NCBI GenBank assembly: GCA_002293525.1
Contig: DBDJ01000036.1
Coordinates: 33,082 to 97,081 of the forward strand
Direction: 5' to 3'
DNA length: 64,000 bases
Source: Lachnospiraceae bacterium UBA935
GTDB taxonomy: Bacteria > Bacillota > Clostridia > Lachnospirales > Lachnospiraceae
Shown: positions 2,864 through 61,243 of the stretch, in pieces
Layout: each line of letters starts with the position of its first letter
Numbering within the stretch: the first letter of the stretch is position 1
The notes under the pieces: model-generated
Databases searched by the model: none
Told to the model about the DNA's origin: nothing
The model's input: only the letters and a program-made list of their open reading frames with translations
Position numbers and translations under genes: made by a program

Positions 2864-4156
2864 GTGAAAACGATAAAACTAACTGCCAAAACCAAGAAAA
2901 ACGTCCTGACCGAGCTGCTTCAGCGAAGCCCGGATCAGTATGGACAATATGAAGGCGTCGTCCAGGGCATCATCGACAACATCAAGCTGCGCCGCGACGA
3001 AGGCCTGTTCCATTACACCCGGGAATTTGACAAGTGCCTCATCAATACGGACACGATCCGCGTGACGAAACAGGAAATCAAGGAAGCTTATGCCCAGACT
3101 GATGCCGAATTTATCGCCGTCATGAAGAGGGCGGCCGCCAATATAACCGCATTCCACCAAAAACAGCTGCGGAACAGCTGGTTTGATACCGCAGCGGATG
3201 GTTCCCTGCTAGGGCAGCGGATCACGCCGATCGAAATATCCGGTGTCTATGTTCCCGGAGGGAAAGCTGCCTATCCGTCCAGCGTATTGATGAATATCAT
3301 ACCGGCCAAGGTAGCCGGAGTCTGCCGGGTGATCATGTGTACCCCGCCTGACCGGGAGGGCCGGATCGATCCGGGGACACTGGTAGCCGCCGATATCGCC
3401 GGGGCTGATGAGATCTATAAAGCAGGCGGCGCCCAGGCGATCGCTGCCATGGCCTTTGGTACGGAAAGCATCCCCAAGACGGATAAGATCACCGGACCCG
3501 GCAATATTTACGTGACCCTTGCCAAAAAGGCCTGCTTCGGCCATGTCAGCATTGATTCCATCGCCGGCCCCAGTGAAATCCTGATCTTGGCCGATGAAAC
3601 CGCCAATCCCCGTTATGTCGCCGCCGACCTGCTCTCACAGACAGAGCATGACGAACTGGCCAGCGCGATCCTGGTCACCACGAGCGAAACCTTAGCCCGG
3701 CAAGTAAGCGAAGAAATCGACAGTACCGTTGACCAGCTTTCGCGGGCCGCGATCATCCGCAAGTCCCTGGCGCGTTACGGATACATATTGCTGGCAAAAG
3801 ACATGGAAGAAGCCATTGAAACTGCCAATGAAATCGCCTCGGAACATGTCGAGATCCTGACCCGTGCTCCTTTTGAGATCATGCCTAAGATACGGAATGC
3901 CGGAGCCATCTTCCTGGGTGAGTTTTCCTCCGAACCGCTGGGCGACTATTACGCCGGTCCTAATCATATCCTGCCAACCAACGGGACAGCCCGCTTTTTT
4001 TCGCCGCTTAATGTCGATGACTTCATGAAAAAAACCAGTATCATTTCCTATACGAAAGAAGCTCTGCTGAAAGCGCATAAGGATATCGAGCTTTTTGCCG
4101 AAAAAGAGGGATTGACGGCGCATGCGAATTCTATTAAAGTAAGATTTGAGAAATAA
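2864..4156 (+). CDS. hisD: Histidinol dehydrogenase
   Basis: 430 aa, GTG start. Motifs QTEHDELA, SEHVEI and GDYYAGPNHILPT are typical of HisD. Confidence 0.9.
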   Translation: MKTIKLTAKTKKNVLTELLQRSPDQYGQYEGVVQGIIDNIKLRRDEGLFHYTREFDKCLINTDTIRVTKQEIKEAYAQTDAEFIAVMKRAAANITAFHQKQLRNSWFDTAADGSLLGQRITPIEISGVYVPGGKAAYPSSVLMNIIPAKVAGVCRVIMCTPPDREGRIDPGTLVAADIAGADEIYKAGGAQAIAAMAFGTESIPKTDKITGPGNIYVTLAKKACFGHVSIDSIAGPSEILILADETANPRYVAADLLSQTEHDELASAILVTTSETLARQVSEEIDSTVDQLSRAAIIRKSLARYGYILLAKDMEEAIETANEIASEHVEILTRAPFEIMPKIRNAGAIFLGEFSSEPLGDYYAGPNHILPTNGTARFFSPLNVDDFMKKTSIISYTKEALLKAHKDIELFAEKEGLTAHANSIKVRFEK

Positions 4157-6093: not shown

Positions 6094-8557
6094 TAAGCAA
6101 TACCGTCATTCATCCCAATCCAAAGCTGATAAGAGGCGTCCCCTCTTCTTTCTGCTGGCGTTTCTGCTTCCCTTTCTGACGATGCTGCTGATCTATGCGG
6201 AAATGGGGATGGCGCCCTTTGGCGGACGTTCGGTTCTGCTCATGGATATGTCTGAGCAATATGTCAACTTCTTTGCGGAGCTTAAGCAGATTGTTCGGGG
6301 CGACAGCAGTATTTATTTTTCCTGGAACAAATCCTTTGGCGCCAGTTTTATCGGCGTATTTGCCTATTATCTTGCCAGCCCGTTTTCGGTTCTGACGATA
6401 TTCTTTAAGCCGGAGAACCTGCCGGTCGCCTTACTGTTTCTGACCTGCCTGAAAATCGGGATGGCAGGCTTTACCCTGAACCTATATTTTAACTATGCCT
6501 TCCGGAAAACGGGACTGGGGACGCTGCTGTTTTCACTCTGCTATGCCCTGATGTCCTATTCGTTTTCTTATTCGCTGAGCATCATGTGGCTGGACGGGCT
6601 GATCTGGCTGCCGGTCATCCTGCTGGGCATCGAAAAGCATCTGGCGGGCAAGTTTCCCTGGATCCTGACGCTTAGCTTAAGCGTCATGTTCGTGTCCAAT
6701 TATTATATCGCCTATATGATCGGCCTTTTTTGCGTCCTTTATTTCTTATACCGCTTTTTTAGTGAAAAACGCCGGCTGCGGCAGTTCGGACGATTACTCA
6801 CCGACTTTATCGGAGCGGTTGTCATAGCGGCCGGGATGGCAGCCTGGCTGCTGCTGCCGACCGGGCTGGAGCTATTGACGGGAAAGCTAGCCCAAGGAGC
6901 AGCCACCGCAGATAAAGGCATGTATTTCATGTCAGTCGATCTGTTCAAACGCTTGCTGCCAGGTCAATATGACGGGATTACCTACGGGCTTCCCTACCTG
7001 TTCTGCGGTACATTGGTGCTGGTGCTGGCGGTTATTTATTTCTTCAATCCCCGGATTCCCGTCAGGGAACGGCTTGCTGCTTATGTTTTTGTCCGCCTGA
7101 TGATTATCAGCTTTTGCAGCAAGCATCTGAATTTCCTTTGGCATGGCTTGCAATACCCTAACTGGTTTCCTTTCCGCAACTCCTTTCTGTTTTCCTTCTT
7201 ACTGATTTTCCTGGCCTTCCGTTCGGTCGGCGCGATACCGCTTAAGGAACTGAAACAGCAGTTTATAAAGAATGCCAAGGCAGTCCGCGTGGTAGAAAAA
7301 GCATTTCCGCTGATACTGATCTTTTTCTTCAGCCTGCAGGCTGTCGAACTCTATCAGAACGGCAGGGTGATTATCAGAGGTCTTGACCGGGATTTTAATT
7401 ACGTATCAATGAAGGACTATCAGGATTTTTATCAAGAACTCCTTCCGCTTGTAGAACAAGCAGAAAGCAGCCCAGGATTCTTCCGGATCGAGAAGGATTT
7501 CGAACGCAGCAAAAATGATGCATTGCTGCTCAGCTATAAAGGCATAACTCATTATTCTTCGGCATTCAATTACCAGGTCAACAGTTTTTCCGAGCAGATC
7601 GGCCTTGCCCAGGGATGGATATGGAACTCCTATTTTGGCCATACGCCCCTGACCGACATGATCTTCAATGTAAAATATATGATGTCAAGAAAAGCCATGC
7701 CGGCTTACTATAAGCGCATCAGTGAAAACGGCAGTGTCACGCTCTATGAAAATCCAGCTGTCCTTCCGGTGGCTTTCATGACAAAAGAGCTTGCCCCGAT
7801 TGCTCGGATCGAAAGCCGGGATTTTGAAGCCCAAAATGAAATGCTGTCGAAACTAAGCGGCTTGGATCATGCTTATTTTACTTCCTGTGAGATTACGGCT
7901 TTGTCGGCCGGCCGGTATTGCTTTACAGCATCGGAAAACGCACCTTATTTTCTTTCTATTACGGTAGGAGACCACGGATATGGCAGCATTTATGCCAATG
8001 AGGTTTACCGCGGTCATTATTGGACCGGTGAAACTCAATGTATTCTTTATATCGGCGATTACCAAAAGGGCGAGGCGGTCGTGATTGACATAGAAAATAT
8101 GAATGAAGAGGATGATCCGGAATCGTCAGGACAGAAGCCTGCTGACCAGGAACCATCTGACCAGGATACGTCAGCACTCAGAATAAGCGCCCTGAATATA
8201 GTCTGGCTTACCGAGGCTTTTCAAGCTCTTGAAAAAGGCGGGCTGACGGTCACCGAATCCGGTGCCGGTCACATAAGCGGCCAGGTGCTTGCACAGGACA
8301 GCGGTGTAATGATGACAAGCATCCCGTATGATGCCGGATTTCAGGTTAAAGTAGACGGTCAAAAGATAAATACCGTAGTAGCTTTTGATACGTTTCTGGC
8401 TTTTCCGGTTCCAGAAGGGAGCCATGAGATTTCCATCCGCTATTTTGCCCGCGGACAGGTCGCCGGTATCCTTGTCTCACTTTGCAGCACCATTTGCTTT
8501 GCTTTCTTGTTCCTAAAGATTATCAGGCATAATTTTGCCCGCCCCCACATATTTTGA
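6080..8557 (+). CDS. YfhO family membrane protein (putative glycosyltransferase)
   Basis: 825 aa, polytopic. The N-terminal region (LPFLTMLLIYAEMGMAPFGG, MDMSEQYVNFF) is typical of YfhO. TTG start overlaps the hisIE end. Confidence 0.75.
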   Translation: MQNADKQYRHSSQSKADKRRPLFFLLAFLLPFLTMLLIYAEMGMAPFGGRSVLLMDMSEQYVNFFAELKQIVRGDSSIYFSWNKSFGASFIGVFAYYLASPFSVLTIFFKPENLPVALLFLTCLKIGMAGFTLNLYFNYAFRKTGLGTLLFSLCYALMSYSFSYSLSIMWLDGLIWLPVILLGIEKHLAGKFPWILTLSLSVMFVSNYYIAYMIGLFCVLYFLYRFFSEKRRLRQFGRLLTDFIGAVVIAAGMAAWLLLPTGLELLTGKLAQGAATADKGMYFMSVDLFKRLLPGQYDGITYGLPYLFCGTLVLVLAVIYFFNPRIPVRERLAAYVFVRLMIISFCSKHLNFLWHGLQYPNWFPFRNSFLFSFLLIFLAFRSVGAIPLKELKQQFIKNAKAVRVVEKAFPLILIFFFSLQAVELYQNGRVIIRGLDRDFNYVSMKDYQDFYQELLPLVEQAESSPGFFRIEKDFERSKNDALLLSYKGITHYSSAFNYQVNSFSEQIGLAQGWIWNSYFGHTPLTDMIFNVKYMMSRKAMPAYYKRISENGSVTLYENPAVLPVAFMTKELAPIARIESRDFEAQNEMLSKLSGLDHAYFTSCEITALSAGRYCFTASENAPYFLSITVGDHGYGSIYANEVYRGHYWTGETQCILYIGDYQKGEAVVIDIENMNEEDDPESSGQKPADQEPSDQDTSALRISALNIVWLTEAFQALEKGGLTVTESGAGHISGQVLAQDSGVMMTSIPYDAGFQVKVDGQKINTVVAFDTFLAFPVPEGSHEISIRYFARGQVAGILVSLCSTICFAFLFLKIIRHNFARPHIF

Positions 8558-11782: not shown

Positions 11783-11903
11783 GCCTTAACTGAAGAGACA
11801 TTAACTGAATTGGCTTAATCAGATTCGACATTAACAGATTTGGCATTAATAGATGCAGTATTAACAGATTTTGCATATCTGATTGTCAGATTAGATTGAT
11901 ACG
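11769..11903. repeat. 15-bp-period tandem repeat, about 9 units (core CATTAACAGATT)
   Basis: Units start exactly every 15 bp at 11769, 11784, 11799 and so on. The first unit contains the TIGR03936 stop codon, and the array ends 15 nt before the rng ATG. Confidence 0.9.
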
Positions 11904-11918: not shown

Positions 11919-13070
11919 ATGCCTGTCACAGAAGGCGGTGCGGTTGATGGCATCGTAGTTATCGTAAAAAGGGGAACACAGATCCTCGTTCTTCTTTATC
12001 AGCATAATAAAGTGCAGTCCTTACAAGCCACCGAGCCGGGCGGCCTGCTGGGAAATATCTATATCGGCCGGGTACAGAAAGTACTGCCTGGGCTTAAAGC
12101 AGCTTTTATTGACGTTGATAAAGAGCTCACCTGTTTCTTGCAAAAAGGAGATCTGAGCGATATCAAAGGCAATGATGAGATCCCTGTCCAGGTCACCGCC
12201 GAAGCCATGAAAGCCAAGCCGCCCGTCGTCAGCCGTAATCTGACCCTGACCGGCAGATACTGTGTCGTTTCCTGCCAGCAGCCAGGACTTTCTTTTTCCG
12301 GGAAATTATCCACTGTCCAAAAGAAACACTTAAGGAAAGAACTGAGCGAGCTGGCAGATCTCTTGGCGGACTATCATGTGATCATCCGGACAAATGCCGG
12401 AGAGCTGGAAGAATCCGGTCCGATGCTTATGGAAATCAGGCAATTGGCAGAAGAACTGACGAAGTTGCGGCTGAATGCCCCCCATCGTACCTGCTACAGC
12501 CTTTTGTATCAAGGAACCCAAGGATATGTCAAAGCGGTCAGGGATATTCGAAACAGTGAATATAAGGAGATTGTAACCGATCTTCCCGATGTATATGATG
12601 TCCTGAATCAATTGTATAGAGGCAGGGTACGTTATTACCAGGATGACATGCTTTCCCTTAGCAAGCTGTACAGCGTCGAAACGCACCTGCAAAACAGCCT
12701 GAATTCCAAAGTATGGCTCGATATGGGCGGTTTTCTGGTGATAGAACCAACCGAGGCGCTGACCGTGATCGATGTCAACAGCGGCAAAAGCAATGCCAAG
12801 AAACCCGCATTCTTTTTAGCACTCAACAAACAAGCGGCACAGGAAGCGGCCCGGCAGATGCGGATCCGTAATCTTTCCGGCATCATTATCATCGATTTCA
12901 TCAATATGGAATCCGCGGAAGAGGAACAGGAACTGTTGGCCTATATGCACGAACTTGTCAGAAAAGACTCCGTCAAAACGAGCGTAATCGACATCACGCC
13001 GCTGGGTCTGATGGAAATCACCCGCAAAAAAATCGGAAAAATGTTGTCGGAAGTGATCAAAATACCTTGA
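11919..13070 (+). CDS. rng: Rne/Rng family ribonuclease (RNase G-like)
   Basis: S1-like segment (IYIGRVQKVLPGLKAAFIDV) and catalytic core (TVIDVNSGK, GIIIIDFI). AAAGGAG RBS. Confidence 0.8.
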   Translation: MPVTEGGAVDGIVVIVKRGTQILVLLYQHNKVQSLQATEPGGLLGNIYIGRVQKVLPGLKAAFIDVDKELTCFLQKGDLSDIKGNDEIPVQVTAEAMKAKPPVVSRNLTLTGRYCVVSCQQPGLSFSGKLSTVQKKHLRKELSELADLLADYHVIIRTNAGELEESGPMLMEIRQLAEELTKLRLNAPHRTCYSLLYQGTQGYVKAVRDIRNSEYKEIVTDLPDVYDVLNQLYRGRVRYYQDDMLSLSKLYSVETHLQNSLNSKVWLDMGGFLVIEPTEALTVIDVNSGKSNAKKPAFFLALNKQAAQEAARQMRIRNLSGIIIIDFINMESAEEEQELLAYMHELVRKDSVKTSVIDITPLGLMEITRKKIGKMLSEVIKIP

Positions 13071-13084
13071 CACAGGCCGGAACC

Positions 13085-14252: not shown

Positions 14253-15584
14253 ATGTTTGCAGACAGAGCTAAAATCATCGTGAAAAGCGGCCGGGGAGGC
14301 GATGGCCATGTGTCGTTCCGGCGCGAAAAATATGTACCGAACGGCGGCCCGGACGGCGGCGACGGCGGGCACGGCGGAAGCGTTATCCTGATAGTGGATG
14401 AAGGTTTAAATACCCTGACAGATTTCCGCCATATCCGCACCTATAAAGCCCAAAGCGGTGAAAACGGCAAGAAAAAGAACTGCCGCGGTAAAGACGGAGA
14501 AAATATTGTCATCAAAGTACCGGAAGGAACTGTCGTAAAAGAAGCGGAAAGCGGCAAAGTGATCGTCGATATGTCAGCCCAGAACCGGAGCTTTACCTTG
14601 CTGACCGGCGGCCGGGGCGGCAACGGCAACCAGCATTATGCGACCAGCACCATGCAGGCCCCCAAATATGCCCAGCCCGGTCAGCCGGCCAAAGAACTGG
14701 AGCTTTTGCTGGAACTTAAGGTGATTGCCGACGTCGGTTTAGTCGGCTTTCCTAATGTGGGCAAGTCGACCCTGTTAACCAAAGTTTCCAATGCCCGACC
14801 GAAAATCGCCAATTATCATTTTACAACTTTAAATCCTCACCTCGGTGTGGTAGACTTAAATGAAGCCAAAGGGTTTGTCATCGCCGACATCCCCGGACTG
14901 ATTGAAGGTGCCTCTGCCGGCGTCGGCCTGGGATTTGAATTCCTGCGCCACATAGAACGTACCAAGGTCATCATTCATGTCGTCGATGCCGCTTCAGTAG
15001 AAGGCCGGGACCCGATCGCGGATATTTATGCGATCAACCGGGAACTGAAGGCTTATAATGCGGTTCTGGCCGACCTCCCTCAGACCATCGCCGCCAACAA
15101 GACCGATATGTTTATGGCTGACACGCTCATGACTGATCCGACTGATCCGAATCATCTGGCTCATCCGGATAATCCGATAGAGCAGATCAGAGCCGAATTT
15201 GAACCGCAGGGGATTAAAGTTTTCCCTGTTTCCGCCCTCAGCGGCAAAGGGATCGAAGAGCTGCTTTATCATGTCCGGAATATGCTGGATCAGCTTGATG
15301 ACAAGCCGGTCATCTTTGAACCGGAATTCTTCCCCGACACGATGCTTTCATCGATCCAGGATCCTTTTACGGTCAGCTACGACGACGAAGCCGATGAGTA
15401 TGTAGTAGAAGGTCCGCGCATTGAGAAGATGCTGGGCTATACCAATCTGGACTCTGAAAAAGGTTTTGTCTTTTTTCAGAGGTTCCTGAAGGAAAACGGT
15501 ATTTTGGATGAGCTTGAAAAAGCCGGTATCGCAGAAGGCGACACCGTCCGTATGTATGGTCTTTCTTTTGACTATTACCGTTAG
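14253..15584 (+). CDS. obg: GTPase ObgE/CgtA
   Basis: Glycine-rich Obg fold (GGDGGHGGSV), G1 motif GFPNVGKST, DIPGLIEGA, and a C-terminal TGS/OCT-like domain. Confidence 0.95.
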   Translation: MFADRAKIIVKSGRGGDGHVSFRREKYVPNGGPDGGDGGHGGSVILIVDEGLNTLTDFRHIRTYKAQSGENGKKKNCRGKDGENIVIKVPEGTVVKEAESGKVIVDMSAQNRSFTLLTGGRGGNGNQHYATSTMQAPKYAQPGQPAKELELLLELKVIADVGLVGFPNVGKSTLLTKVSNARPKIANYHFTTLNPHLGVVDLNEAKGFVIADIPGLIEGASAGVGLGFEFLRHIERTKVIIHVVDAASVEGRDPIADIYAINRELKAYNAVLADLPQTIAANKTDMFMADTLMTDPTDPNHLAHPDNPIEQIRAEFEPQGIKVFPVSALSGKGIEELLYHVRNMLDQLDDKPVIFEPEFFPDTMLSSIQDPFTVSYDDEADEYVVEGPRIEKMLGYTNLDSEKGFVFFQRFLKENGILDELEKAGIAEGDTVRMYGLSFDYYR

Positions 15585-15705
15585 GGAAACGCTGATGCAA
15601 CGTTTTCCGCGCCGGATTTACGGCACAAAGTGCCAGTTTCCACTGTAATCCATGCGCATCCCGCGGAGCGTCAAAGGAAATACTGATGCATCAGTGTTTC
15701 CTTTG
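15584..15705 (+). repeat. ~122-nt multi-hairpin intergenic repeat element, copy 1
   Basis: Near-identical to 21075-21196 and 61121-61243. Starts at the last base of the obg TAG. Contains the micro-ORF 15595-15648. Confidence 0.9.
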
Positions 15706-15756
15706 AAACGTTTTTTAACATTTCTCTAAATACCGTTATTTATTCAGTTACTACAA

Positions 15757-15817
15757 CGCAGTCATTTTACGCAGTCATTTTCGCAGTCATTTATCGCAGT
15801 TATACGCAGTCATTTAG
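15757..15817. repeat. 12-13-bp tandem repeat CGCAGTCATTT, 5 units
   Basis: Five head-to-tail units between element copy 1 and yhbY. Confidence 0.85.
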
Positions 15818-21058: not shown

Positions 21059-21074
21059 TTGACAAGATTAACTA

Positions 21075-21196
21075 GGGAAACGCTGATGCAGCGTTTTCCG
21101 CGCCGGTTTTACGGCACAAAGTGCCAATATCCACTGTAATCCGTGCGCATCCCGCGGAGCGTCTAAGGAAATACTGATGCATCAGTGTTTCCCTGG
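21075..21196 (+). repeat. ~122-nt multi-hairpin intergenic repeat element, copy 2
   Basis: Starts 16 nt after the substrate-binding protein stop. Contains the micro-ORF 21086-21139. Confidence 0.9.
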
Positions 21197-23424: not shown

Positions 23425-24183
23425 ATGGCTTTATTGGAAGTGACCAATCTGAGTATTTCTTTCGGCGGACTGCGGGCAGTGGAGGACTTTTCCGTTTCCA
23501 TTGAGAAAGGACAGCTCTACGGCCTGATCGGGCCTAACGGTGCCGGCAAAACCACAGTATTCAATCTGCTTACTGGCGTGTATAAGCCAGATGAAGGGCT
23601 TATTCATCTGGAAGGCAAGAATATCACCAATCTGAGGACTATTGATATCAATAAAGAAGGAATCGCCAGGACTTTCCAAAATATCCGTCTTTTCAAAAAT
23701 CTGACCGTACTGGATAACGTAAAAGCCGGCCTGCATAACCGATATCACTATTCTGCCATAGAAGGGATTCTGCGTCTGCCCCGCTTCCATAAGACCGAGA
23801 AAATCATGAACGAAAAAGCCTACGAGCTTTTAAAAGTCTTTGAACTGGAAGGAGAAGCCGACTATCTGGCCGCCAACCTGCCTTATGGAAAGCAGCGCAA
23901 GCTGGAAATCGCCAGGGCACTGGCCACCGGACCGAGGCTGCTTTTGCTGGATGAGCCGGCGGCCGGGATGAACCCGAACGAGACCAAGGAACTGATGGAT
24001 ACCATCCGCTTTGTCCGCAAGGAATTTGACATGACCATCCTGCTGATCGAACATGATATGAAGCTGGTAGCCGGTATCTGCGAGGAACTTACCGTCTTGA
24101 ATTTCGGAAAAATACTGACGAGCGGCGAAACCTCAGAAGTATTGAATGACAGCCGCGTAATTACCGCCTATCTTGGTGAATAA
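23425..24183 (+). CDS. livG: ABC transporter ATP-binding protein (LivG-type)
   Basis: Walker A GPNGAGKTT, signature LPYGKQRKLE, Walker B LLLLDEP. Confidence 0.9.
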   Translation: MALLEVTNLSISFGGLRAVEDFSVSIEKGQLYGLIGPNGAGKTTVFNLLTGVYKPDEGLIHLEGKNITNLRTIDINKEGIARTFQNIRLFKNLTVLDNVKAGLHNRYHYSAIEGILRLPRFHKTEKIMNEKAYELLKVFELEGEADYLAANLPYGKQRKLEIARALATGPRLLLLDEPAAGMNPNETKELMDTIRFVRKEFDMTILLIEHDMKLVAGICEELTVLNFGKILTSGETSEVLNDSRVITAYLGE

Positions 24184-24234
24184 GCATTATGACTCCCGCT
24201 TTATGGGCCGGATATCAAACAAGGAGAGCTTGCA

Positions 24235-24945
24235 ATGGCAATGTTGGAAATAAATGACCTGGCAGTGTACTATGGCATGATCCAGGCCGTAAAAGGTATT
24301 TCTTTTGAAGTAAAGGAGGGCGAAGTCATCGCCCTGATCGGTGCCAACGGTGCCGGGAAAACCACTATCCTGCACACGATTACCGGCCTGCTGTCGCCCA
24401 AAAGCGGACGCATCCTCTTTAACGGAATCGATATTACCAAAGTCAAAAGCCACAAAATTGTGTCGATGGGCATGTCCCATGTGCCGGAGGGAAGGAGGGT
24501 GTTTGCCCAGCTGACGGTGCTGCAGAACCTGCTTCTAGGTGCCTATACCCGCAAAGACAAGGCCTCTGTCCAGGAAACCTTAAAAAACATCTATCAGCGC
24601 TTTCCCCGACTGCTGGAACGTAAAAATCAGCTCGCCGGAACCTTAAGCGGCGGCGAGCAACAGATGTTAGCCATGGGACGTGCCTTAATGTCCCGTCCTA
24701 AAATCCTGCTGATGGATGAGCCTTCCATGGGCCTGTCACCGATATTTGTCAACGAAATATTTAGTATCATCGAAGAAGTAAGCAGCAGCGGAACCACCGT
24801 ACTGCTGGTTGAACAAAATGCCAAAAAAGCGCTTTCTATTGCCGACCGGGCTTATGTATTGGAGACCGGATCGATTGCCCTGGAGGGAAAAGCAAGTGAC
24901 CTTTTGAACAACGATTCCATTAAAAAAGCCTATCTCGGCGAGTAA
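24235..24945 (+). CDS. livF: ABC transporter ATP-binding protein (LivF-type)
   Basis: Walker A GANGAGKTT, signature LSGGEQQML, Walker B ILLMDEP. Confidence 0.9.
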   Translation: MAMLEINDLAVYYGMIQAVKGISFEVKEGEVIALIGANGAGKTTILHTITGLLSPKSGRILFNGIDITKVKSHKIVSMGMSHVPEGRRVFAQLTVLQNLLLGAYTRKDKASVQETLKNIYQRFPRLLERKNQLAGTLSGGEQQMLAMGRALMSRPKILLMDEPSMGLSPIFVNEIFSIIEEVSSSGTTVLLVEQNAKKALSIADRAYVLETGSIALEGKASDLLNNDSIKKAYLGE

Positions 24946-24972
24946 CTTTCACTTAAAACAGGAGAGAAGCCT

Positions 24973-25605
24973 ATGAATAAGGTAGTAATAACGATTGCCA
25001 GACAATATGGGAGCGGCGGAAGAACCGTCGGTGAAATGCTGGCTAAAGACCTGGGAATCAAATATTATGACCGCGAACTGCTCAAACTAGCTTCCGATGA
25101 AAGCGGAATCAATGAGCAGCTTTTTGAAACTGCCGATGAGAAACTGAAAAGCACGCGCTTATTCAAAATAGCCCGCAAAGTATATAGCGGCGAACTGATC
25201 CCGCCGGAAAGCGACGAGTTTACTTCCAATGACAATCTATTTAATTATCAGGCCAAAATCATCAAAGAGCTTGCAGAAGAGGAAGCCTGCGTCATAATCG
25301 GCCGTTGTGCGGATTATATATTAAAGGATTACTCCCATGTACTGAGCGTATTTATTCATGCTCCGGAAGACTTCTGTATCACCGAGGCCATGAAAAAGTT
25401 AAGCATGCCACTGAAAGAAATTGACAGGTTCATCACCAAAACGGATCGCCGCAAAGCAGAATATTACAAATACTATACCGGCCGGGATTGGACCGATGCC
25501 CGCAATTATGATTTATGTCTAGACAGCTCCAAACTGGGATTTGAAAGATGCGTAGAGGAAATAAAGGCATATATCCGGATCCGGTTTCCAGATTATATAT
25601 TTTAG
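24973..25605 (+). CDS. Cytidylate kinase-like family protein
   Basis: ITIARQYGSGGRTVGEMLAK is the P-loop-like N-terminus of this family. Paralog of 31013-31636. Confidence 0.7.
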   Translation: MNKVVITIARQYGSGGRTVGEMLAKDLGIKYYDRELLKLASDESGINEQLFETADEKLKSTRLFKIARKVYSGELIPPESDEFTSNDNLFNYQAKIIKELAEEEACVIIGRCADYILKDYSHVLSVFIHAPEDFCITEAMKKLSMPLKEIDRFITKTDRRKAEYYKYYTGRDWTDARNYDLCLDSSKLGFERCVEEIKAYIRIRFPDYIF

Positions 25606-25630
25606 CCATACATATATCAGACAAAAAGAA

Positions 25631-25662
25631 AACGAGCTAAAATCCCTGTATTTCAGCTCGTT
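25631..25662. terminator. Bidirectional terminator-like hairpin between convergent genes
   Basis: AACGAGCTAAAAT pairs with ATTTCAGCTCGTT (one mismatch), flanked by an A-run and TAAAT. Confidence 0.55.
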
Positions 25663-25746
25663 AAATAAATCTAAATTAATATGTTTACTCTAATGAAAGT
25701 TTAATGATAACTTATATATATATCTTTTATATATATCTTTATATAT

Positions 25747-26364
25747 CTAATGAAACAATCTAAAAACTCCAAAGACCTTTCCAAGAATCTGACAGTCCGG
25801 AACGATAATAGGAGCCATACTATCATTTTCCGGCTGAAGGCGGATATAGCCGTTTTCTTTGTAGAACGTCTTCACAGTAGCAGAGTCATCAATCAGAGCC
25901 ACTGCCATATCACCGTTATTTACGGAATCACATGCGTTAACAAAGACCTGATCACCGTCAAATATTCCGACATTGATCATGGAATCGCCCCTTACCTTCA
26001 AAATAAATGATTCGCCTGAAGGAACCACTTCTGCCGGAACGGGAAAATAACTTTCAATATTTTCCTCGGCTAAGATCGGCTGGCCGGCAGCAACATAGCC
26101 TAGAACCGGCAGGCTGACCATTTCCGTGCGGATCTGCTGAAAGCTATCATCACAAATCTCAATAGCTCGCGGTTTTGTCGGATCCCTCCGAATATAGCCG
26201 TTTTTTTCCAAGGTTTCCAGATGGGAGTGAACCGAAGAAGTCGACTTCAGATTGACGGCCTCGCAGATATCCCGGACAGAAGGCGGATAACCTTTATGAA
26301 GAATCTGATCTTTAATATAATTTAAAATTTCCTGCTGTTTGTTAGATATTTTTCCCTGACTCAT
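25747..26364 (-). CDS. lexA: SOS repressor LexA
   Basis: Winged-HTH N-terminus ([13 protein letters not shown]), AG cleavage site (VAAGQP), and S24 peptidase Ser/Lys (GDSM, VKTF). Confidence 0.95.
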
Positions 26365-26433
26365 GATATCTCCTTTCTCTATTTAACTACTTTGTCTTAT
26401 TTGTCTTATTTTTCCATAAATCATCTTTTTTTC

Positions 26434-26462
26434 ATCATAACACAAGAAATCTCAAAAAGCAA
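26434..26462 (-). promoter_or_regulatory. Candidate lexA promoter
   Basis: On the - strand: TTGCTT, 17 nt, TATGAT. Confidence 0.45.
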
Positions 26463-26472
26463 ACATATATTC
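26461..26472. promoter_or_regulatory. Degenerate LexA (Cheo) box overlapping the lexA -35
   Basis: The - strand reads GAATATATGTTT versus the Firmicutes consensus GAAC-N4-GTTC (10 of 12 to CGAACATATGTTCG). Confidence 0.4.
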
Positions 26473-26493
26473 CAAATATTTGTTCGAAAATGC

Positions 26494-26522
26494 TTGACAC
26501 CAGAATACACGTTCGATATAAT
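26494..26522 (+). promoter_or_regulatory. Sigma-A promoter of the yneA-like gene
   Basis: TTGACA (26494-26499), 17-nt spacer, TATAAT (26517-26522). Confidence 0.6.
26503..26514. promoter_or_regulatory. LexA box within the promoter spacer
   Basis: GAATACACGTTC, one mismatch from GAAC-N4-GTTC. Confidence 0.55.
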
Positions 26523-26531
26523 AACATTGTG

Positions 26532-26543
26532 GAACACTTGTTC
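26532..26543. promoter_or_regulatory. LexA box just downstream of the -10
   Basis: GAACACTTGTTC, a perfect GAAC-N4-GTTC. Confidence 0.7.
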
Positions 26544-26647
26544 CCGGCATTTTATTGCGTAACACTTTAAACAATAAGATCCTTTGTAAAAAATACACCA
26601 TGTAATATTAGTTCTTAGGCATGCGGCCTTAGAGAAGCGGAGGCAAG

Positions 26648-27028
26648 ATGGACAATTTAGCACTATATAAAAGTGATATGAGACGAATCCAGAATAAGAA
26701 GATGAGACAGCGTCAGCTTAAGCACAATATTATTACCGGTATTACCGCCCTTGTCCTGATTATCGCCTTAACTATTGCCTTGGGCAGCATAATAGCGTAT
26801 GCACAGTCTGCTAACAAAGAACATATGTATAAATATTACACCAGCATAGAAGTTCATTATGGTGAAACCCTATGGACAATTGCTGAAAATAATATGGATA
26901 CCAGCCAGTATAAAGACATGGATACTTACATCGACGAAGTATTACATATTAATCATTTACAGGATGACACTATTATTACCGGTCAGCATTTAATCATACC
27001 TTACTTTTCAAGCCAGTTTGTAAACTGA
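26648..27028 (+). CDS. YneA-like LysM-domain membrane protein (putative SOS cell-division inhibitor)
   Basis: 126 aa with an N-terminal TM (ITALVLIIALTIALGSII) and a C-terminal LysM (HYGETLWTIA..HLIIPY). Divergent from lexA behind LexA boxes, as for B. subtilis yneA. Confidence 0.6.
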   Translation: MDNLALYKSDMRRIQNKKMRQRQLKHNIITGITALVLIIALTIALGSIIAYAQSANKEHMYKYYTSIEVHYGETLWTIAENNMDTSQYKDMDTYIDEVLHINHLQDDTIITGQHLIIPYFSSQFVN

Positions 27029-28030
27029 TTATTGGTTTTCCCTAAGCTTCACAACATTGGCGGCTTTTCTGCGCCGCTCGTCCTCAAGCGCAGCATAGTG
27101 TTTTCGCGTAGTATTTACATCTTTATGTCCGAGCACATCAGCGACCAGATAGATATCCCCTGTTTCGCGGTATAACGAGGTTCCATAAGTACTTCTTAAC
27201 TTATGAGGGGTTATTTTCTTTAATGTAGTTACTGTCTGGGCATATTTCTTCACCAGATTTTCAACGGCACGCACCGACAGCCGTCGGTTCTGCATGGACA
27301 GAAAGAGTGCTCCCTCATGCCCCGACAAAGGGATCATGGAGAGCCGTTTTTCAAGATAATCATGCAGAGCATCAGAGACTTCATCACCAAAATAAACGAT
27401 TGCTTCATAGCCGCCTTTTCTTCTGATCCGGATCCCGTTATTTTTAAAATCTATATCCCCGACATCCAGTCCGACACATTCCGAAACGCGTAGCCCTGTC
27501 CCTAATAGCAGGGTCAGCAAAGCAATATCACGTACTTTAGTCTTCGCATGATAGCGCAACTGATTTTTAGTCAATTTAGTACCATCCTCCACCTGATCCA
27601 GCAGGATGGCCACTTCATCGACATCCAGATGAACGATTTCTTTGTCATGCCGTTTCGGCATCGGCACGAGAGCAGCAGGATTGGTCTGGATCGACTCAGA
27701 GCGGAAGAAATAATTATAAAAACTCTTCAATGTAGCTAACTTCCTTGATTTCCCGCGTTCGTCATTGGTGATTTCTTTGCCGTCCTTTTGATACAACGTA
27801 ACGTAATCCAGATATTCTTCTATGTCATCACGTTTAATTAAGTCTAGCATACTTAAAGGAAATTCAGCTATTTCCATGCATTTACAATGACTGTTGTTCT
27901 GGTGCATATATTCAAAAAATACTCTTATATCATAAGCGTAGGCAAGCCTGGTACGAGAAGATGTGTATTCCTGTATTCCCCGGAAAAACTGTTTGCAAAA
28001 GAGCGGAAGAGTATCCAGCACTTCACGCAT
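27029..28030 (-). CDS. Tyrosine-type site-specific recombinase (Xer/integrase family)
   Basis: Catalytic R..HKLR..GH..Y (ITPHKLRST, LGHKDVNTT, RKHY). The start is placed at the ATG at 28030; a TTG near 28075 or the ORF-track start at 28162 (overlapping ttcA) is possible. Confidence 0.8.
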   Translation of the reverse strand: MREVLDTLPLFCKQFFRGIQEYTSSRTRLAYAYDIRVFFEYMHQNNSHCKCMEIAEFPLSMLDLIKRDDIEEYLDYVTLYQKDGKEITNDERGKSRKLATLKSFYNYFFRSESIQTNPAALVPMPKRHDKEIVHLDVDEVAILLDQVEDGTKLTKNQLRYHAKTKVRDIALLTLLLGTGLRVSECVGLDVGDIDFKNNGIRIRRKGGYEAIVYFGDEVSDALHDYLEKRLSMIPLSGHEGALFLSMQNRRLSVRAVENLVKKYAQTVTTLKKITPHKLRSTYGTSLYRETGDIYLVADVLGHKDVNTTRKHYAALEDERRRKAANVVKLRENQ

Positions 28031-28070
28031 TCTCAGGGTATTGACTTTATTCTGCTCATCATGATAATTT

Positions 28071-28802
28071 TTATTGCTTTCCAAAATAATCCTGCCATCC
28101 TTCCATCTTGCCGCGCTGTATCGCTGTAAACATCCGTTCCCTGACCCCAGGGTTTTCAGCATTCAATGTTCTTAATAAATTTTTAACATATTCGCGTTTC
28201 GTATATCCGTCTACCGGACAGGGACTTTTAACTACCGCAACCTTATAATGCTTAACAAACCCGATTACATCCGCTTCATCCATATACATCAGGGGCCTGA
28301 TGACTGTTATGTCCATCCGGTCCAGATAAGTGACTGGTGAAAAAGTATGGAATCTGCCCTCATAGATCAATGATAACAGCATAGTTTCCACTACGTCATC
28401 CTTATGGTGGGCATAAGCCACCTTATTACAGCCGGCCTCCCGCATCGCCTGATTTAACGCACCTTTACGCATCTTGGCACACAAGGAACAAGGATTACTT
28501 TCTCGGCGGTCTTCAAAAATAACCGACGCGATATCTGTCTTAATAATGGTATACGGTATGTCTAACGACGCGCACAGCTCTTTAATCTTGTCCAGATTCA
28601 GATTATCAAATCCCAGATCCACCGTAACCGCATGAATGTCAAATCTACAAGGATAAAACCGCTTAAGGCCATGTAAGGCATGCAGCAGAGTGAGACTGTC
28701 CTTGCCTCCGGATATACCGACAGCTATCCGGTCATTCTCTTCAATCATGCGATAATCATCCACAGCCTTTCGGACATAGCTCATAACCTGTTGTAATTTC
28801 AT
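28071..28802 (-). CDS. TtcA-family PP-loop ATPase (tRNA 2-thiocytidine synthetase-like)
   Basis: SGGKDS PP-loop and the CSLCAKMRKGAL cysteine motif. Confidence 0.8.
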   Translation of the reverse strand: MKLQQVMSYVRKAVDDYRMIEENDRIAVGISGGKDSLTLLHALHGLKRFYPCRFDIHAVTVDLGFDNLNLDKIKELCASLDIPYTIIKTDIASVIFEDRRESNPCSLCAKMRKGALNQAMREAGCNKVAYAHHKDDVVETMLLSLIYEGRFHTFSPVTYLDRMDITVIRPLMYMDEADVIGFVKHYKVAVVKSPCPVDGYTKREYVKNLLRTLNAENPGVRERMFTAIQRGKMEGWQDYFGKQ

Positions 28803-28885
28803 TTTGTCTTATCCACCTCGCTATCAACACATATTAAACTTAATTATACCAAAAACAAGCTTAAAAGTCTTGTGTATATTCGTTG

Positions 28886-29086
28886 AATAAGAAATTACCG
28901 AATAAGAAATTATAGGTATTCGCTGAATAAGAAATTATAGGTGCTGAATAAGAAATTTTAGATGTATAAGAAATTATAGGTGAATAAGAAATTATAGGAA
29001 TTAGGAGGAATTAAACGGATTTAAACGGATTTAAGCGGATTTAAGAGGAATTAAAAGAAATCAAAAAGAAATTAAGGACAAGGATA
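28886..29086. repeat. Two adjacent tandem-repeat arrays in a divergent promoter region
   Basis: Six GAATAAGAAATTATAGG-like units (28886-29000), then CGGATTTAA/GGAATTAA-type units with about 11-bp period (29000-29086). Confidence 0.85.
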
Positions 29087-29192
29087 GCCATAACACCTAT
29101 ACAAAAATTATCAAGCCATAACACGTTCTATACTTGTAATTCCCTGGATTTTACAGTATTATGAATAGGAGAGATGCATTGAAGGAGATTTT

Positions 29193-30479
29193 ATGAAATT
29201 TCGTCCTAATAAAAAAGATCTATCAAAAGGAATCATAGCGCTGCTAGTTATTATCGCGGCTATCTGTTTCTACTACCTTTTATTTAACGGAACTCATTTC
29301 AGTTCTATAATCAAGTCGATTTTTCAAATATTTATGCCAGTCACGTACGGGTTTATATTTGCATACTTACTGACTCCCGTAGTCAATAGGCTGGAAGTCC
29401 GGGTGATTCTTCCTGTCATCAAAAGATTAAAAATAAAAAACGAAGTTAAAGCTCAAAAAATATCAAGAGGACTAACGATCTTCATAACGGTAATGGTAGT
29501 GCTATGGGTAATTTATAGTTTCTTCGCCCTGATTATCCCCGAGTTGATCAGCAGTATCCGAAATATTTCCGTACAGCTTCCGATTTTCGTAAGAAATACT
29601 ACCGACTGGGTAAACAAAATCCTGGCAGATAATCCTGACATCAGGGATTTCATCAGAACCACCCTCCCCATCTATTCAGATCAGCTGCAAAGCTTTCTGA
29701 ATACAAATATTCTGCCGCAAATGGAGACCGTCTTTAAATCCGTTACGCTCAGCGTAATGAGCCTAGTCCAGGTACTATGGAATTTTTTGATCGGCATCAT
29801 TATTTCCTGCTATGTGCTTTTTAATAAAGAACTATTTGCCGGTCAATGTAAAAAAATCCTATATGCTTTATTCAAAACACCGACAGCCAACAACATCATC
29901 CAACGCTCCCGTTTTACCAACAAGACATTCAGCGGTTTCATCGGTGGCAAGATCCTTGATTCCCTTATCATCGGTTTATTATGTTTTATCGGAGTCAGCC
30001 TTTTACAAATGCCACATGCAGTCCTAGTCAGTGTCATAGTGGGTGTAACTAATGTAATACCTTTCTTTGGCCCATATATCGGCGCCATTCCCAGTGCCTT
30101 TTTGATTTTTATGGTAAGCCCGATAAAATGCCTTTACTTTTTGATATTTATCTTAATTTTACAACAATTCGACGGCAACGTCCTGGGACCAAGAATCCTC
30201 GGAGAGTCTACCGGCCTAAGCGGTTTCTGGGTGATTTTTTCGATTACCATTTTCGGAGGCCTCTTTGGTGTTTTAGGCATGATAATAGGAGTCCCATTTT
30301 TCGCTGTCCTATATACCATATTCAGAAGCTATATCAACAAAAAACTTACCCTCCGGGGTTTGCCCGACAGTACCATAGAATATCTAGATGTGGGCACGAT
30401 AGAAGACAACAATTTAATAAAACTCCAACCAGAAGACAAAAAATCCCAAACGTCCCAGTCCACAAATAATTTAAAATAA
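29193..30479 (+). CDS. AI-2E family transporter (UPF0118/PerM)
   Basis: 428 aa, polytopic, with ILQQFDGNVLGPRILGESTGLS typical of the family. Confidence 0.85.
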   Translation: MKFRPNKKDLSKGIIALLVIIAAICFYYLLFNGTHFSSIIKSIFQIFMPVTYGFIFAYLLTPVVNRLEVRVILPVIKRLKIKNEVKAQKISRGLTIFITVMVVLWVIYSFFALIIPELISSIRNISVQLPIFVRNTTDWVNKILADNPDIRDFIRTTLPIYSDQLQSFLNTNILPQMETVFKSVTLSVMSLVQVLWNFLIGIIISCYVLFNKELFAGQCKKILYALFKTPTANNIIQRSRFTNKTFSGFIGGKILDSLIIGLLCFIGVSLLQMPHAVLVSVIVGVTNVIPFFGPYIGAIPSAFLIFMVSPIKCLYFLIFILILQQFDGNVLGPRILGESTGLSGFWVIFSITIFGGLFGVLGMIIGVPFFAVLYTIFRSYINKKLTLRGLPDSTIEYLDVGTIEDNNLIKLQPEDKKSQTSQSTNNLK

Positions 30480-30509
30480 CCCAAAAGTGAATAAGGAGGA
30501 CAGAAAATA

Positions 30510-30809
30510 ATGAACATAATAATACCAATTATTATTATTGCCTTTATTTTAATAGTATACGTCTATACATTTCTCAAACAAAGAAATAAACGAATGGAAA
30601 ATCAAAGAAATCTAGACACATTTCGCATGCAATATCAACATCGTCTAACCAAACCCAATACCAACCCCATTACAAACCCCAATACCAATACCAACCCCAA
30701 TACAAGCACGACTCCAAATACCACCACACCAAATTATCATCATCACCCAAAACTCACTCACCAAGAAGATTATCGCGAGCAAAAAGATTATCACAACCAA
30801 AAAGATTAA
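30510..30809 (+). CDS. Hypothetical small membrane protein with low-complexity PNT and QKDYHN repeats
   Basis: N-terminal TM (IIIPIIIIAFILIVYVY). The tail is encoded by short tandem DNA repeats, and the stop lies inside a repeat unit. Confidence 0.35.
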   Translation: MNIIIPIIIIAFILIVYVYTFLKQRNKRMENQRNLDTFRMQYQHRLTKPNTNPITNPNTNTNPNTSTTPNTTTPNYHHHPKLTHQEDYREQKDYHNQKD

Positions 30810-30851
30810 CACAACCAAAAAGCTTATCACAACCAAAAAGCTTATCACAAC
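30762..30851 (+). repeat. 18-bp tandem repeat, 5 units (CAAAAAGATTATCACAAC)
   Basis: In frame with the 30510 ORF. Unit 3 carries TAA where the other units have TAT. Confidence 0.85.
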
Positions 30852-30922
30852 CAAACGTCAGCTGAAACTAACATCCCCCCCACAACACCTACCAATTAAC
30901 CAACCCTCAACACCCAACCCAC

Positions 30923-31011
30923 GACTTTAACGAATAGTTGGCTCAATATCAAGAGCAACCAGCACACCCCGCGCCAACTATTCGTTAAAGTCGGCTTTTG
31001 CGAATAGTTGG
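30923..31011. repeat. 19-bp perfect inverted repeat plus a third partial copy
   Basis: GACTTTAACGAATAGTTGG (30923-30941) is the reverse complement of 30974-30992. CGAATAGTTGG recurs at 31001-31011. Confidence 0.85.
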
Positions 31012-31012
31012 A

Positions 31013-31636
31013 TTACTGTTTATTCTCGAAGTCATCGATATATTGGATGATCAGCCGCACTGTCCCGTCAATCCCCAACACGCTGCTGTTTACGCAGAGG
31101 TCATAACTGTCAGCCCGTCCCCACTTTTTCGAGGAATAATAATTATAATAGCTCTGACGCTGTTTATCCTTCTTGGCACACATTTCTTTTGCTTTAGCGG
31201 CATCGACATTGTATTTTTCACAGACATGCTTGACTTTTTCTTCTTCATTTCCATAGATAAAAATATGGACACAGTTCTTTTTATCACTTAAGGCATAATC
31301 TGCGCAGCGGCCCATGATGACACAGGGCCCTTCATCGGCAATTTTCTTAATGGTATCAAATTGAGCCAGGAACACCTTATGACTGATCGGCATATCCACA
31401 AAATGTGCCGCATTATAGCCAAATGAATACGTATCCATGACTAGGTTGTACAAAAAAGAACTGGTAGGCCTTTCATCATGGTTATAGATCATTTCTTCGC
31501 AGAATCCGCTTTCTTTGGCAGCCCTGGTCAGCAGTTCTTTATCAAGAAACCGGATATCAAAATGCTTGGCTACCTGCTCTCCTATTTCATGCCCGCCTGA
31601 TCCAAATTGCCGTCCTATGGTAATAATGGTATTCAT
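31013..31636 (-). CDS. Cytidylate kinase-like family protein
   Basis: ITIGRQFGSGGHEIGEQVAK. Paralog of 24973-25605 in the opposite orientation. Confidence 0.7.
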   Translation of the reverse strand: MNTIITIGRQFGSGGHEIGEQVAKHFDIRFLDKELLTRAAKESGFCEEMIYNHDERPTSSFLYNLVMDTYSFGYNAAHFVDMPISHKVFLAQFDTIKKIADEGPCVIMGRCADYALSDKKNCVHIFIYGNEEEKVKHVCEKYNVDAAKAKEMCAKKDKQRQSYYNYYSSKKWGRADSYDLCVNSSVLGIDGTVRLIIQYIDDFENKQ

Positions 31637-31932
31637 ATAGCACCCCCATTCGAAATATTTAATTGGTTAAGTTTATTATAGCATATTACCACATTCAGAG
31701 GCAGAAATATATAAATTAATTTATTGAATTTATTGAATTAATTTCGCTGCAAGCTGTTTTCGCTATAATTAAGGCCATTTTCCGATTCGTTCCCCGCTAC
31801 TCCGCCAGCCAGAAGAGATGATTTTCATTTTTCTGGCCAAAGGGCGAAGCAAACTGGCTTAATTCAAACAATCTTTAACTTGCCGAATAATTCGTTTATC
31901 AATATATTCCAACGATTTATTCAATATTTTTA

Positions 31933-31962
31933 TTGACTGTAACTAAAATAACCTAGTATAAT
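31933..31962 (+). promoter_or_regulatory. Sigma-A-like promoter for the XRE gene
   Basis: TTGACT (31933-31938), 18-nt spacer, TATAAT (31957-31962). AAAGGAGG RBS follows. Confidence 0.5.
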
Positions 31963-31987
31963 TAAAATCACAAAAGGAGGAATAAAA

Positions 31988-32458
31988 ATGGCAAACATAG
32001 AATTTTCAAGGGCTCTAAAAGAATTGCGTCAAAAGGCCGGATTCACCCAAAAAGAAGTCTATGAGCATTTTGAAATACCGCAGTCAACATTTAGTTCGTG
32101 GGAAGTCGGAAAATCGGAGCCATCGGGAGAAATGCTCCTAAGATTGTGTAAGTTTTATAACTCTGACATGCTGAAAGACTTTAATGCGAATGCCGATGCC
32201 CTAACAAACAACGAATTACTGGTTATAGAAAAATATCGTGAGCTAGACAATTATGGCAGAAATGCCGTTAAGGTAGTGATGGAAAATGAATTGAAACGTA
32301 CCAAACATGACGCCGAAGAGAAAGCATTGATTGCCAGAATACATGAACTGAACCGAACGCTAAGTGCTGCTTACGAGCGAACCGACTTGGGCGATCTGTC
32401 CGATGAGGAACTGGCCGAACTAAAAAGACTCGATGATGAGATAATTGACAGGATGTAA
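31988..32458 (+). CDS. XRE-family helix-turn-helix transcriptional regulator
   Basis: HTH_3 N-terminus (LKELRQKAGFTQKEVYEHFEIPQSTFSSWEVGKSEP) with a coiled C-terminal half. Confidence 0.8.
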   Translation: MANIEFSRALKELRQKAGFTQKEVYEHFEIPQSTFSSWEVGKSEPSGEMLLRLCKFYNSDMLKDFNANADALTNNELLVIEKYRELDNYGRNAVKVVMENELKRTKHDAEEKALIARIHELNRTLSAAYERTDLGDLSDEELAELKRLDDEIIDRM

Positions 32459-32543
32459 CGGGAGAAAACTGTTGCGATGTCGCGATGAGGCGTATTTGCA
32501 ATTATATAAACATATTTAAACACAAGAAGAAAGGAATTTTACC

Positions 32544-33809: not shown

Positions 33810-33903
33810 ATTGTAGCCACCAAGCCCTTACCCTATGCCCTAGCGGTATGGGCATCACAGAAGGCACTGTATGGATTATTCAAACACCTTTGTTATCATT
33901 CAA

Positions 33904-33940
33904 AAAACGGTTTACATAAATATATTATGTAAACCGTTTT
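33904..33940. terminator. Bidirectional terminator-like palindrome with a dif-like core
   Basis: AAAACGGTTTACATAA-ATATA-TTATGTAAACCGTTTT with 16-bp arms, between convergent genes. The core resembles Xer dif sites. Confidence 0.6.
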
Positions 33941-50934: not shown

Positions 50935-51031
50935 ATCAGCACCCCTTTCGTGTCACCGCATTATTATGTCGTATTTATCTTGTGTTGTTCAGGGAAACGC
51001 CATGCAGCGTTTCTCGCACTTAGGGCAGCCG

Positions 51032-61100: not shown

Positions 61101-61120
61101 GGAGTTTCAACTGATTATTA

Positions 61121-61243
61121 GGGAAACGCTGATGCAGCGTTTCCCGCGCCGGATTTATGGCACAAAGTGCCAGTTTCCCCTGTAAATCCGTGCGCATCCC
61201 GCGGAGCGTCTAAGGAAATACTGATGCATCAGTGTTTCCTTAG
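61121..61243 (+). repeat. ~122-nt multi-hairpin intergenic repeat element, copy 3
   Basis: 123 nt (one extra A). Lies between - strand genes miaB and GH25. Contains the micro-ORF 61132-61185. Confidence 0.9.

Follow-up and report, generated by a model that had tools for sequence, protein, structure and literature searches.

The gene obg in a 64,000-nucleotide stretch of contig DBDJ01000036.1 from Lachnospiraceae bacterium UBA935 (this whole stretch is called the window below) is followed directly by a repeat of about 122 nucleotides. The repeat occurs three times in the window and can be folded into several hairpins. Two questions are raised by this locus: whether the repeat is a structured RNA or a piece of mobile DNA, and why it begins within the stop codon of a gene. 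A sequence-only reading of the window had favored a plus-strand RNA, had also noted a layout like that of a miniature inverted-repeat transposable element (MITE) or a repetitive extragenic palindromic (REP) sequence, and could place the repeat in no family. On comparison with Rfam, plasmids, phages, and literature strings, the repeat is probably a previously undescribed family of non-autonomous MITEs. The MITE/REP-like layout is borne out by terminal inverted repeats, 4-nucleotide direct-repeat flanks, copies in both orientations, derivatives, subfamilies, and absence in sister species.

Termini and Internal Repeats

The three repeats are present at 15581-15705, 21072-21196, and 61118-61243, all on the plus strand, and a repeat finder joins them in one family. 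Pairs of copies differ at 8, 8, and 9 positions in a three-copy alignment, which agrees with the 8 to 9 mismatches counted earlier by hand. A search of the window with a covariance model built from 13 members returned exactly these three full copies, with E-values of 1e-30 to 1e-34.

The family was collected by a pattern scan of metagenomes for hairpin 3, with two wobble positions degenerate, together with related contigs. By nhmmer and direct reading of the loci, it comprises 13 distinct full copies and at least 8 short derivatives, for a total of at least 21 copies. Individual loci are cited below by an L number.

The core of the element has the layout GGAAAC(G)CTGATGCA...TGCATCAG(T)GTTTCC, with terminal inverted repeats matching at 14 of 15 nucleotides. 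The left repeat is GGAAACGCTGATGCA and the right repeat is TGCATCAGTGTTTCC (reverse complement GGAAACACTGATGCA). The core is 117 to 118 nucleotides long in the window and reaches 132 nucleotides in variants. The hairpins are predicted as the sequence-only reading drew them: hairpin 1, a compound stem with GGCAC-AAA-GTGCC, a short CCGCGG linker, and hairpin 3. Hairpins 1 and 3 exist because each terminus pairs with an internal complement, and they are indeed inverted copies of each other. All 13 full copies have an identical left terminus, GGAAACGCTGAT, even though this lies outside the scan pattern, while the arm that pairs with it within hairpin 1 contains 7 changes in the 13-copy alignment. 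Conservation thus tracks the terminus and not the helix.

Because the repeats are nested, the element also contains two pairs of internal direct repeats, GGAAAYRCTGATGCA and CAGYGTTTCC, each found in both hairpin 1 and hairpin 3. Deletion between the GGAAAYRCTGATGCA pair produces exactly one of the short palindromic derivatives described below, the hybrid solo, and deletion between the CAGYGTTTCC pair produces a hairpin-1-type solo. Since the internal direct repeats yield the solo forms, the solos are most simply collapse products that keep their original flanks. The element has no coding capacity. Only spurious open reading frames (ORFs) overlap it, and stops are met within 15 nucleotides in two of the three entering frames.

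Flanking Tetranucleotides

Inspection of the flanks, a check that the sequence-only reading had proposed, identified 4-nucleotide direct repeats of the form YTAR. Most are TTAG/TTAG; CTAG/CTAG and TTAA/TTAA also occur, and CTAA is seen. Across 21 copies, the left and right flanks match at 69 of 84 positions as direct repeats, compared with 46 of 84 as inverted repeats. Departures from TTAG co-vary between the two sides: CTAG/CTAG (L125), CTAG/CTGG (copy 2), TTAA/TTAA (L134), and TTAT/CTAT (L140). When the right flanks were shuffled among copies, the observed match count was reached in 1.4% of trials (permutation p = 0.014). YTAR is the target and duplication motif of IS5 (PMC5009759) and the target of IS711 of the IS427 group (PMC2266754). 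The flanks of the repeat therefore equal the target preference documented for IS5-family elements. A 2-bp TA duplication of the IS630 kind was considered and set aside as unparsimonious, as in four copies the end bases of the element would have to change along with the genomic flank by chance.

These flanks bear on a different reading in which the mobile unit is a palindrome of about 26 nucleotides plus TTAG, spread as a single-stranded hairpin by a REP-associated tyrosine (HUH/Y1) or IS200/IS605-type enzyme. There would be no true target duplication, and the 122-nucleotide form would be two units around a spacer, as in BIME or REPIN. We regard this as unlikely. It accounts for a conserved tetranucleotide at the foot of a hairpin and for an extragenic position close to the 3' ends of genes. 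TTAG...TTAG would likewise result if an IS200/IS605-type element, itself terminating in TTAG, were inserted 3' of TTAG. The co-variation of the left and right tetranucleotides (CTAG/CTAG, TTAA/TTAA, and TAT/TAT) is predicted by duplication and not by an end that the element itself carries.

Stop Codons and Orientation

All copies are intergenic. In 9 of the 21 copies, the stop codon of a flanking gene (genes of 154 to 655 codons) lies in the 4-nucleotide flank or the first 13 nucleotides of the element. The stop is within the flank at copy 1 (TAG of obg) and at L125, L127, L140, L135, and L136, and it is the TGA of CTGATG at L139, L131, and L128. At L135, two convergent genes have their stops in the two TTAG copies, one as TAG and the other, on the opposite strand, as TAA. 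This arrangement would be the expected product of duplicating one shared TTAG. The obg gene of the window keeps its normal C-terminus, SFDYYR*, the only difference being TAA to TAG. Its relatives end at the same residue (SFDYYR/P*) with TAA and have no element. Copy 2 begins 14 nucleotides downstream of the stop of a gene for an ABC substrate-binding protein. Copy 3 sits between minus-strand genes for a GH25 lysozyme and a MiaB-like protein and is antisense to local transcription.

Of the 13 full copies, 7 are sense and 6 antisense with respect to the nearest genes. Three QMCD01 contigs each contain two oppositely oriented copies, although the flanking genes run in one direction. That all copies have the same absolute orientation, as stated earlier, holds within the window and does not hold elsewhere, where both orientations are found on one contig. 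Within the window, gene strand and GC skew switch at about 24-33 kb, and the orientation of copy 3 relative to the fork is not that of copies 1 and 2. Because of this switch, the common absolute orientation is not common relative to transcription or to the presumed direction of replication. The lack of bias toward gene or replication direction also counts against the REP-like reading. Strand-specific insertion of the IS200/IS605 type, as a cause of the uniform orientation in the window, was rejected on account of the skew and strand switch together with the two orientations seen elsewhere.

The region at about 24000-34000 has further features. Genes change from the plus to the minus strand, cumulative GC skew peaks near 24 kb, and GC content is 0.39 at 26-32 kb. 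LexA (25747-26364, minus strand) and a tyrosine recombinase (27029-28162, minus strand) are encoded here. The region may be a replication-terminus-like junction or an inserted island.

Derivatives and Subfamilies

The short derivatives can be sorted by the part of the element that they retain. L123 and L129 are 5'-truncated copies, and L089, from the UBA938 metagenome-assembled genome (MAG), is a remnant with hairpin 3 only. Hybrid solos with the sequence GGAAACGCTGATGCATCAGTGTTTCC are present as five identical copies in L128, L130, L135, L136, and L138. A hairpin-1-type solo is located in L136 at about 13053-13075, and a solo with a different loop is located in L124 at 7435-7462. L072, from another Lachnospiraceae MAG, is a 55-nucleotide element in which the family termini surround an unrelated 25-nucleotide interior.

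Solo palindromes that occur on their own are what the REP-like reading would lead one to expect. It is also consistent with the full element being two palindromes around a spacer, and the whole can form one long hairpin, as in the minimum-free-energy fold of copy 2. The solos are, however, fully accounted for by deletion between the internal direct repeats. E. coli RayT as a query gave no tblastn match below E = 4.8 in the available loci, which cover only a small fraction of each genome, and this is an insensitive test. A stronger form of the idea, in which the TTAG-flanked 26-bp palindrome is itself mobile, is distinctly improbable. It would then be a Firmicute counterpart of REP/REPIN that is kept at stop codons, where its orientation-independent hairpins would serve one or both of a pair of convergent genes as protectors or terminators of mRNA 3' ends, and it would be among the smallest mobile DNAs known.

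Full copies can be grouped by shared derived changes. Copies 1 and 2 have in common a C-to-T change in hairpin 1 and a 1-nucleotide deletion. The extra A that the sequence-only reading saw in copy 3 is present; it is not an insertion but the ancestral state, found in 11 of 13 copies, from which copies 1 and 2 differ by that common deletion. Copy 3 and L137 share two derived changes. L127 and L140, on different contigs, have a common 14-nucleotide hairpin insertion in the linker: at L127 10506-10646 and L140 248-385, the CCGCGG linker is replaced at the same position by a 14-nucleotide longer hairpin, AGTCCC-ATA-GGGACT. Such shared changes define subfamilies, so variants have been copied to new sites.

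A more complex arrangement was observed at L126 (about 4060-4130). Here an inverted partial copy of the central stem adjoins a full copy, with hairpin 3 as the common center, to form a longer palindrome.

Host Genomes

The metagenome scan for hairpin 3 returned 18 loci, 15 in the whole-genome shotgun set QMCD01 and three in QMCE01. QMCD01 (GCA_003324365.1) encodes proteins identical to those of the MAG Lachnospiraceae bacterium UBA938 (GCA_002293475.1). The window sequence is identical to QMCE01769388.1 and to termite gut metagenome contigs (PRJNA193472). Its Obg has 87% identity to the Obg of UBA938 and 76-78% to proteins named Lachnospiraceae. The hosts of the family are at least three related Lachnospiraceae genomes, namely the window organism, the UBA938/QMCD01 species, and one more MAG.

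A genome collection was scanned with a 16-mer pattern of both termini, which is too short to be specific there. The scan gave 120 loci, nearly all of them single chance matches, and the only real members are L089 and L072. A 1.39-kb terminus pair at L112 (Verrucomicrobia) sits within ordinary genes and was rejected as chance. Scans of viral contigs found no family member, giving either nothing or chance matches within genes. As far as seen, the family is confined to a small clade of uncultured Lachnospiraceae.

Sites in Related Genomes

The sites of all three window copies lack the element in related genomes. At the site of copy 1, the closest relative (L146, Obg 92%) has a 37-nucleotide obg-yhbY spacer (...TACCGTTAAGAACCC...) with no element, and the element is also absent in UBA938 (L147) and L149. 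At the site of copy 2, the gene pair and the promoter downstream are conserved in L150 and L151, which have no element. At the site of copy 3, UBA938 (L158) has a 75-nucleotide spacer with the same promoter and no element. These sister species carry the family elsewhere, and the element marks recent genome change among closely related Lachnospiraceae.

Every contig found for the window species carries the element or ends in it. L122, L142, L143, and L145 break inside the element, which is typical of a dispersed repeat; the element thus breaks short-read assemblies.

Two further differences between spacers were observed next to window copies. A 13-nucleotide tandem repeat (ACGCAGTCATTTT, about 5 copies) lies at 15756-15816 between copy 1 and yhbY and is not in the L146 spacer. 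A perfect hairpin with a 12-bp stem (CCAGACAGAAAA...TTTCTGTCTGG) lies at 61055-61087, 30 nucleotides from copy 3, and is not in the UBA938 spacer.

Predicted Structure and the Structured-RNA Reading

The three window copies have very stable predicted folds. On the plus strand, the folding energies are -49.6, -55.2, and -66.1 kcal/mol (z of -5.1 to -8.8 against shuffles). Folding of the minus strand is only slightly less favorable, with -49.5, -50.5, and -62.1 kcal/mol (z of -4.6 to -8.4). Two differences between copies that had been offered as signs of kept pairing are real, namely the G-C versus G-U difference in hairpin 1 and the CAAAGG/CCTTTG double change in copy 1. The invariant U-G pair that had been taken to favor a plus-strand RNA is merely a C/T difference between the inner and outer arms, inherited by all copies from a common ancestor.

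These folds could be taken to mean that the repeat is a cis-acting structured RNA of 3' untranslated regions (a terminator, attenuator, or mRNA stabilizer) that is kept for its fold, a reading to which we give a very low probability. Copies just downstream of stop codons agree with it. So does copy 1, where hairpin 3 and a T-run fit the terminator pattern; the T-run belongs to the flank and not to the element, and the pattern is absent at copies 2 and 3. In the 13-copy alignment, 94.7% of cells can pair, compared with 94.1% in shuffles, and a few changes look compensatory (columns 40/66, for instance, hold A-U, G-U, and G-C). Of the -53.7 kcal/mol computed by RNAalifold, covariation contributes -0.25. 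Changes on both sides of a pair are found in 4 of 608 cells; the 4 pairs compare with 1.5 +/- 1.1 in shuffles, a count reached by 25 of 500 shuffles, and are within the range of unconstrained related sequences. The covariation test has low power, with a mean column identity of 86% and most of hairpin 3 set by the scan pattern, and its outcome gives no support for the RNA reading, short of disproof. The nearly even split between sense and antisense copies, the foldability of both strands, and the persistence of truncated and collapsed 26-bp copies also weigh against a structured RNA. The earlier claim of a plus-strand structured RNA is therefore unsupported.

A free-standing small RNA gene with at least three paralogous copies is extremely improbable. 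The size and predicted structure are in the range of small RNAs. No promoter-like site was found on the plus strand before any of the three window copies, and copy 1 starts inside the obg stop codon. The random orientation, 26-bp derivatives, flanking direct repeats, and assembly breaks are what one expects of a DNA repeat.

That the repeat belongs to no known family is upheld by Rfam, by the collections of phages and plasmids, and by a string search of the literature. No match at the gathering score was found in the window with Rfam 15, and around copy 1 there was only miRNA and snoRNA noise with E above 1. BLAST of the copies against 72,556 plasmids and 50,697 phages gave no match. Terminal 13-mers in the literature string search matched unrelated primers only, and a literature search on MITEs in Lachnospiraceae returned nothing relevant. 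Rfam carries some repeat-derived RNA families. The present element can pass for a structured RNA in fold-based screens.

Proposed Mechanism of Insertion

From the flanks and termini, we infer an enzyme type and a cut-and-duplicate step for the MITE family. A DDE-type transposase encoded elsewhere, with the IS5-like preference for YTAR and a 4-bp duplication, would bind the termini. The element would be inserted at YTAR through a 4-bp staggered cut, and repair of this cut would duplicate the tetranucleotide. Stop codons would be natural targets because YTAR contains TAA or TAG. As duplication would regenerate the stop, insertions would be harmless and copies would accumulate at gene 3' ends. 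The abutment of copy 1 on the obg stop codon, which the sequence-only reading had pointed out, is explained in the same way: YTAR holds TAR, duplication regenerates the stop, and the insertion is tolerated. The internal direct repeats would then promote deletions that leave solo palindromes of about 26 bp with the duplication still flanking them. If the hairpins affect the 3' ends of mRNAs at all, they would do so incidentally.

Several observations weigh against this account. Support from the flanks is moderate, with 11 of 21 direct repeats perfect and p of about 0.01-0.03. At the base of hairpin 3, an internal CTAA pairs with the right flank, and this pairing could alone keep the flank near TTAG. 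In palindromic DNA, both this pairing and the CAAA/TTTG pair of copy 1 may be kept at the level of the DNA. A conserved tetranucleotide beside a palindromic unit is also characteristic of REP sequences. The spacers around the three window sites are not alignable between species, and no base-exact empty site with a single YTAR was recovered; the comparison with relatives thus establishes lineage-specific presence and not a base-exact empty site. The window, L121-L161, and the 120 loci of the 16-mer scan, which together cover a small part of each genome, revealed no autonomous partner bounded by matching termini. In tblastn against the available loci, InsH, the transposase of E. coli IS5, had no match, and the E. 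coli IS30 and IS1 proteins gave nothing relevant. It is the target preference that suggests derivation from an IS5-family partner.

Two other candidates were rejected. The end motifs do not fit the RYYYAAC/GTTRRRY of an integron attC site, and a cassette array is lacking. Copies at gene 3' ends do not suit a transcription-factor operator.

Coordinates and Other Features of the Window

The coordinates of the full copies, their flanks, and two probable solo remnants are listed in Table 1.

Table 1. Copies of the element and probable remnants in the window.
Feature	Coordinates	Strand	Comment
Copy 1, left flank TTAG	15581..15584	+	Bases 15582-15584 are the obg stop TAG
Copy 1, core, 117 nt, GGAAACGCTGATGCA...TGCATCAGTGTTTCC	15585..15701	+	Covariance model 135.4 bits
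Copy 1, right flank TTTG	15702..15705	+	3/4 identity to left TTAG
Copy 2, left flank CTAG	21072..21075	+	
Copy 2, core, 117 nt	21076..21192	+	Covariance model 135.9 bits
Copy 2, right flank CTGG	21193..21196	+	Unusual first C, as in left CTAG
Copy 3, left flank TTAG	61118..61121	+	
Copy 3, core, 118 nt	61122..61239	+	Covariance model 155.8 bits
Copy 3, right flank TTAG	61240..61243	+	Perfect direct repeat of left flank
Probable degenerate solo remnant, CTAA GAAAATAATTGAATCAGTGTTTCT CTAA	48474..48505	.	11-nt exact match to right terminus and equal 4-nt flanks; weak
Probable degenerate hairpin-1-type solo, GGGAAACGCCATGCAGCGTTTCT, intergenic	50990..51014	.	nhmmer E 0.31; weak

The first of the probable remnants is situated in a 23-nucleotide gap between two minus-strand genes, and the stop of the upstream gene (TCA, read as TGA) lies inside it.

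Intergenic tandem repeats with a period of 10-18 nucleotides, often just upstream of genes, are present at 2696-2749, 11797-11876, 25707-25746, 28900-29055, and 36780-36838. They may be repeated protein-binding sites. At 30510-30855, an ORF of 99 codons without a Pfam match is followed or overlapped by 12- and 18-nucleotide repeats (ACCAAAAAGATTATCACA, five copies, and the CCAACCCCAAT type), which could encode a repetitive peptide. Outside the window, a 13-nucleotide deletion at about 5713-5726 of L159 (QMCE01769633.1) splits mutS into ORFs of 217 and 616 residues. This locus is otherwise identical to L158 (UBA938), and the split gene is either a frameshifted allele or an assembly error.

Comparison with Known Systems

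MITEs of uncultured gut Firmicutes are, to our knowledge, rarely catalogued. The clearest biological point of the present family is the link between the YTAR target and the stop codon, as a regenerated stop explains undamaged genes such as obg. The family would also supply regulatory variation if its hairpins act on the 3' ends of mRNAs.

Correia elements of Neisseria, RUP of Streptococcus pneumoniae, and ERIC/IRU of enterobacteria are bacterial MITEs with a short target duplication that contains TA. The present family resembles them in being about 100-150 nucleotides long and non-coding, with terminal inverted repeats and intergenic copies in both orientations. Internal-deletion variants, a strong hairpin potential, and a position often adjoining genes are also common to both. 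Unlike these elements, each terminus is half of a local palindrome, so that the inverted repeats are nested. The duplication is 4 nucleotides (YTAR) instead of TA, and nearly half of the copies overlap a stop codon.

With the IS5 family, the element shares YTAR flanks (TTAG, CTAG, TTAA, and CTAA) and termini that start with GG or GA, as in IS5 (GGAAGGTGCG...). It differs in having no transposase gene, and the ends of E. coli IS5 have only their first four bases, GGAA, in common with it.

Described REP/RAYT systems (E. coli and Pseudomonas) are mostly proteobacterial, and REPs may affect mRNA ends. REP, BIME, and REPIN sequences are likewise short extragenic palindromes with a conserved tetranucleotide, single or paired around a spacer, near gene 3' ends. 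In the present family, the tetranucleotide is on both sides as a co-varying direct repeat, the sequence is unrelated to E. coli REPs, and the host is a Firmicute.

Palindrome-associated elements (PATEs) of the IS200/IS605 type have no target duplication and a strand-biased insertion. They share with the present family hairpins at both ends and a short specific sequence 5' of the left end and at the right end. The present family differs from them in that its flanks co-vary and its orientation is unbiased, even on contigs of uniform gene direction. Set beside these systems, its noteworthy features are a target preference that regenerates stop codons and nested termini that collapse on themselves.

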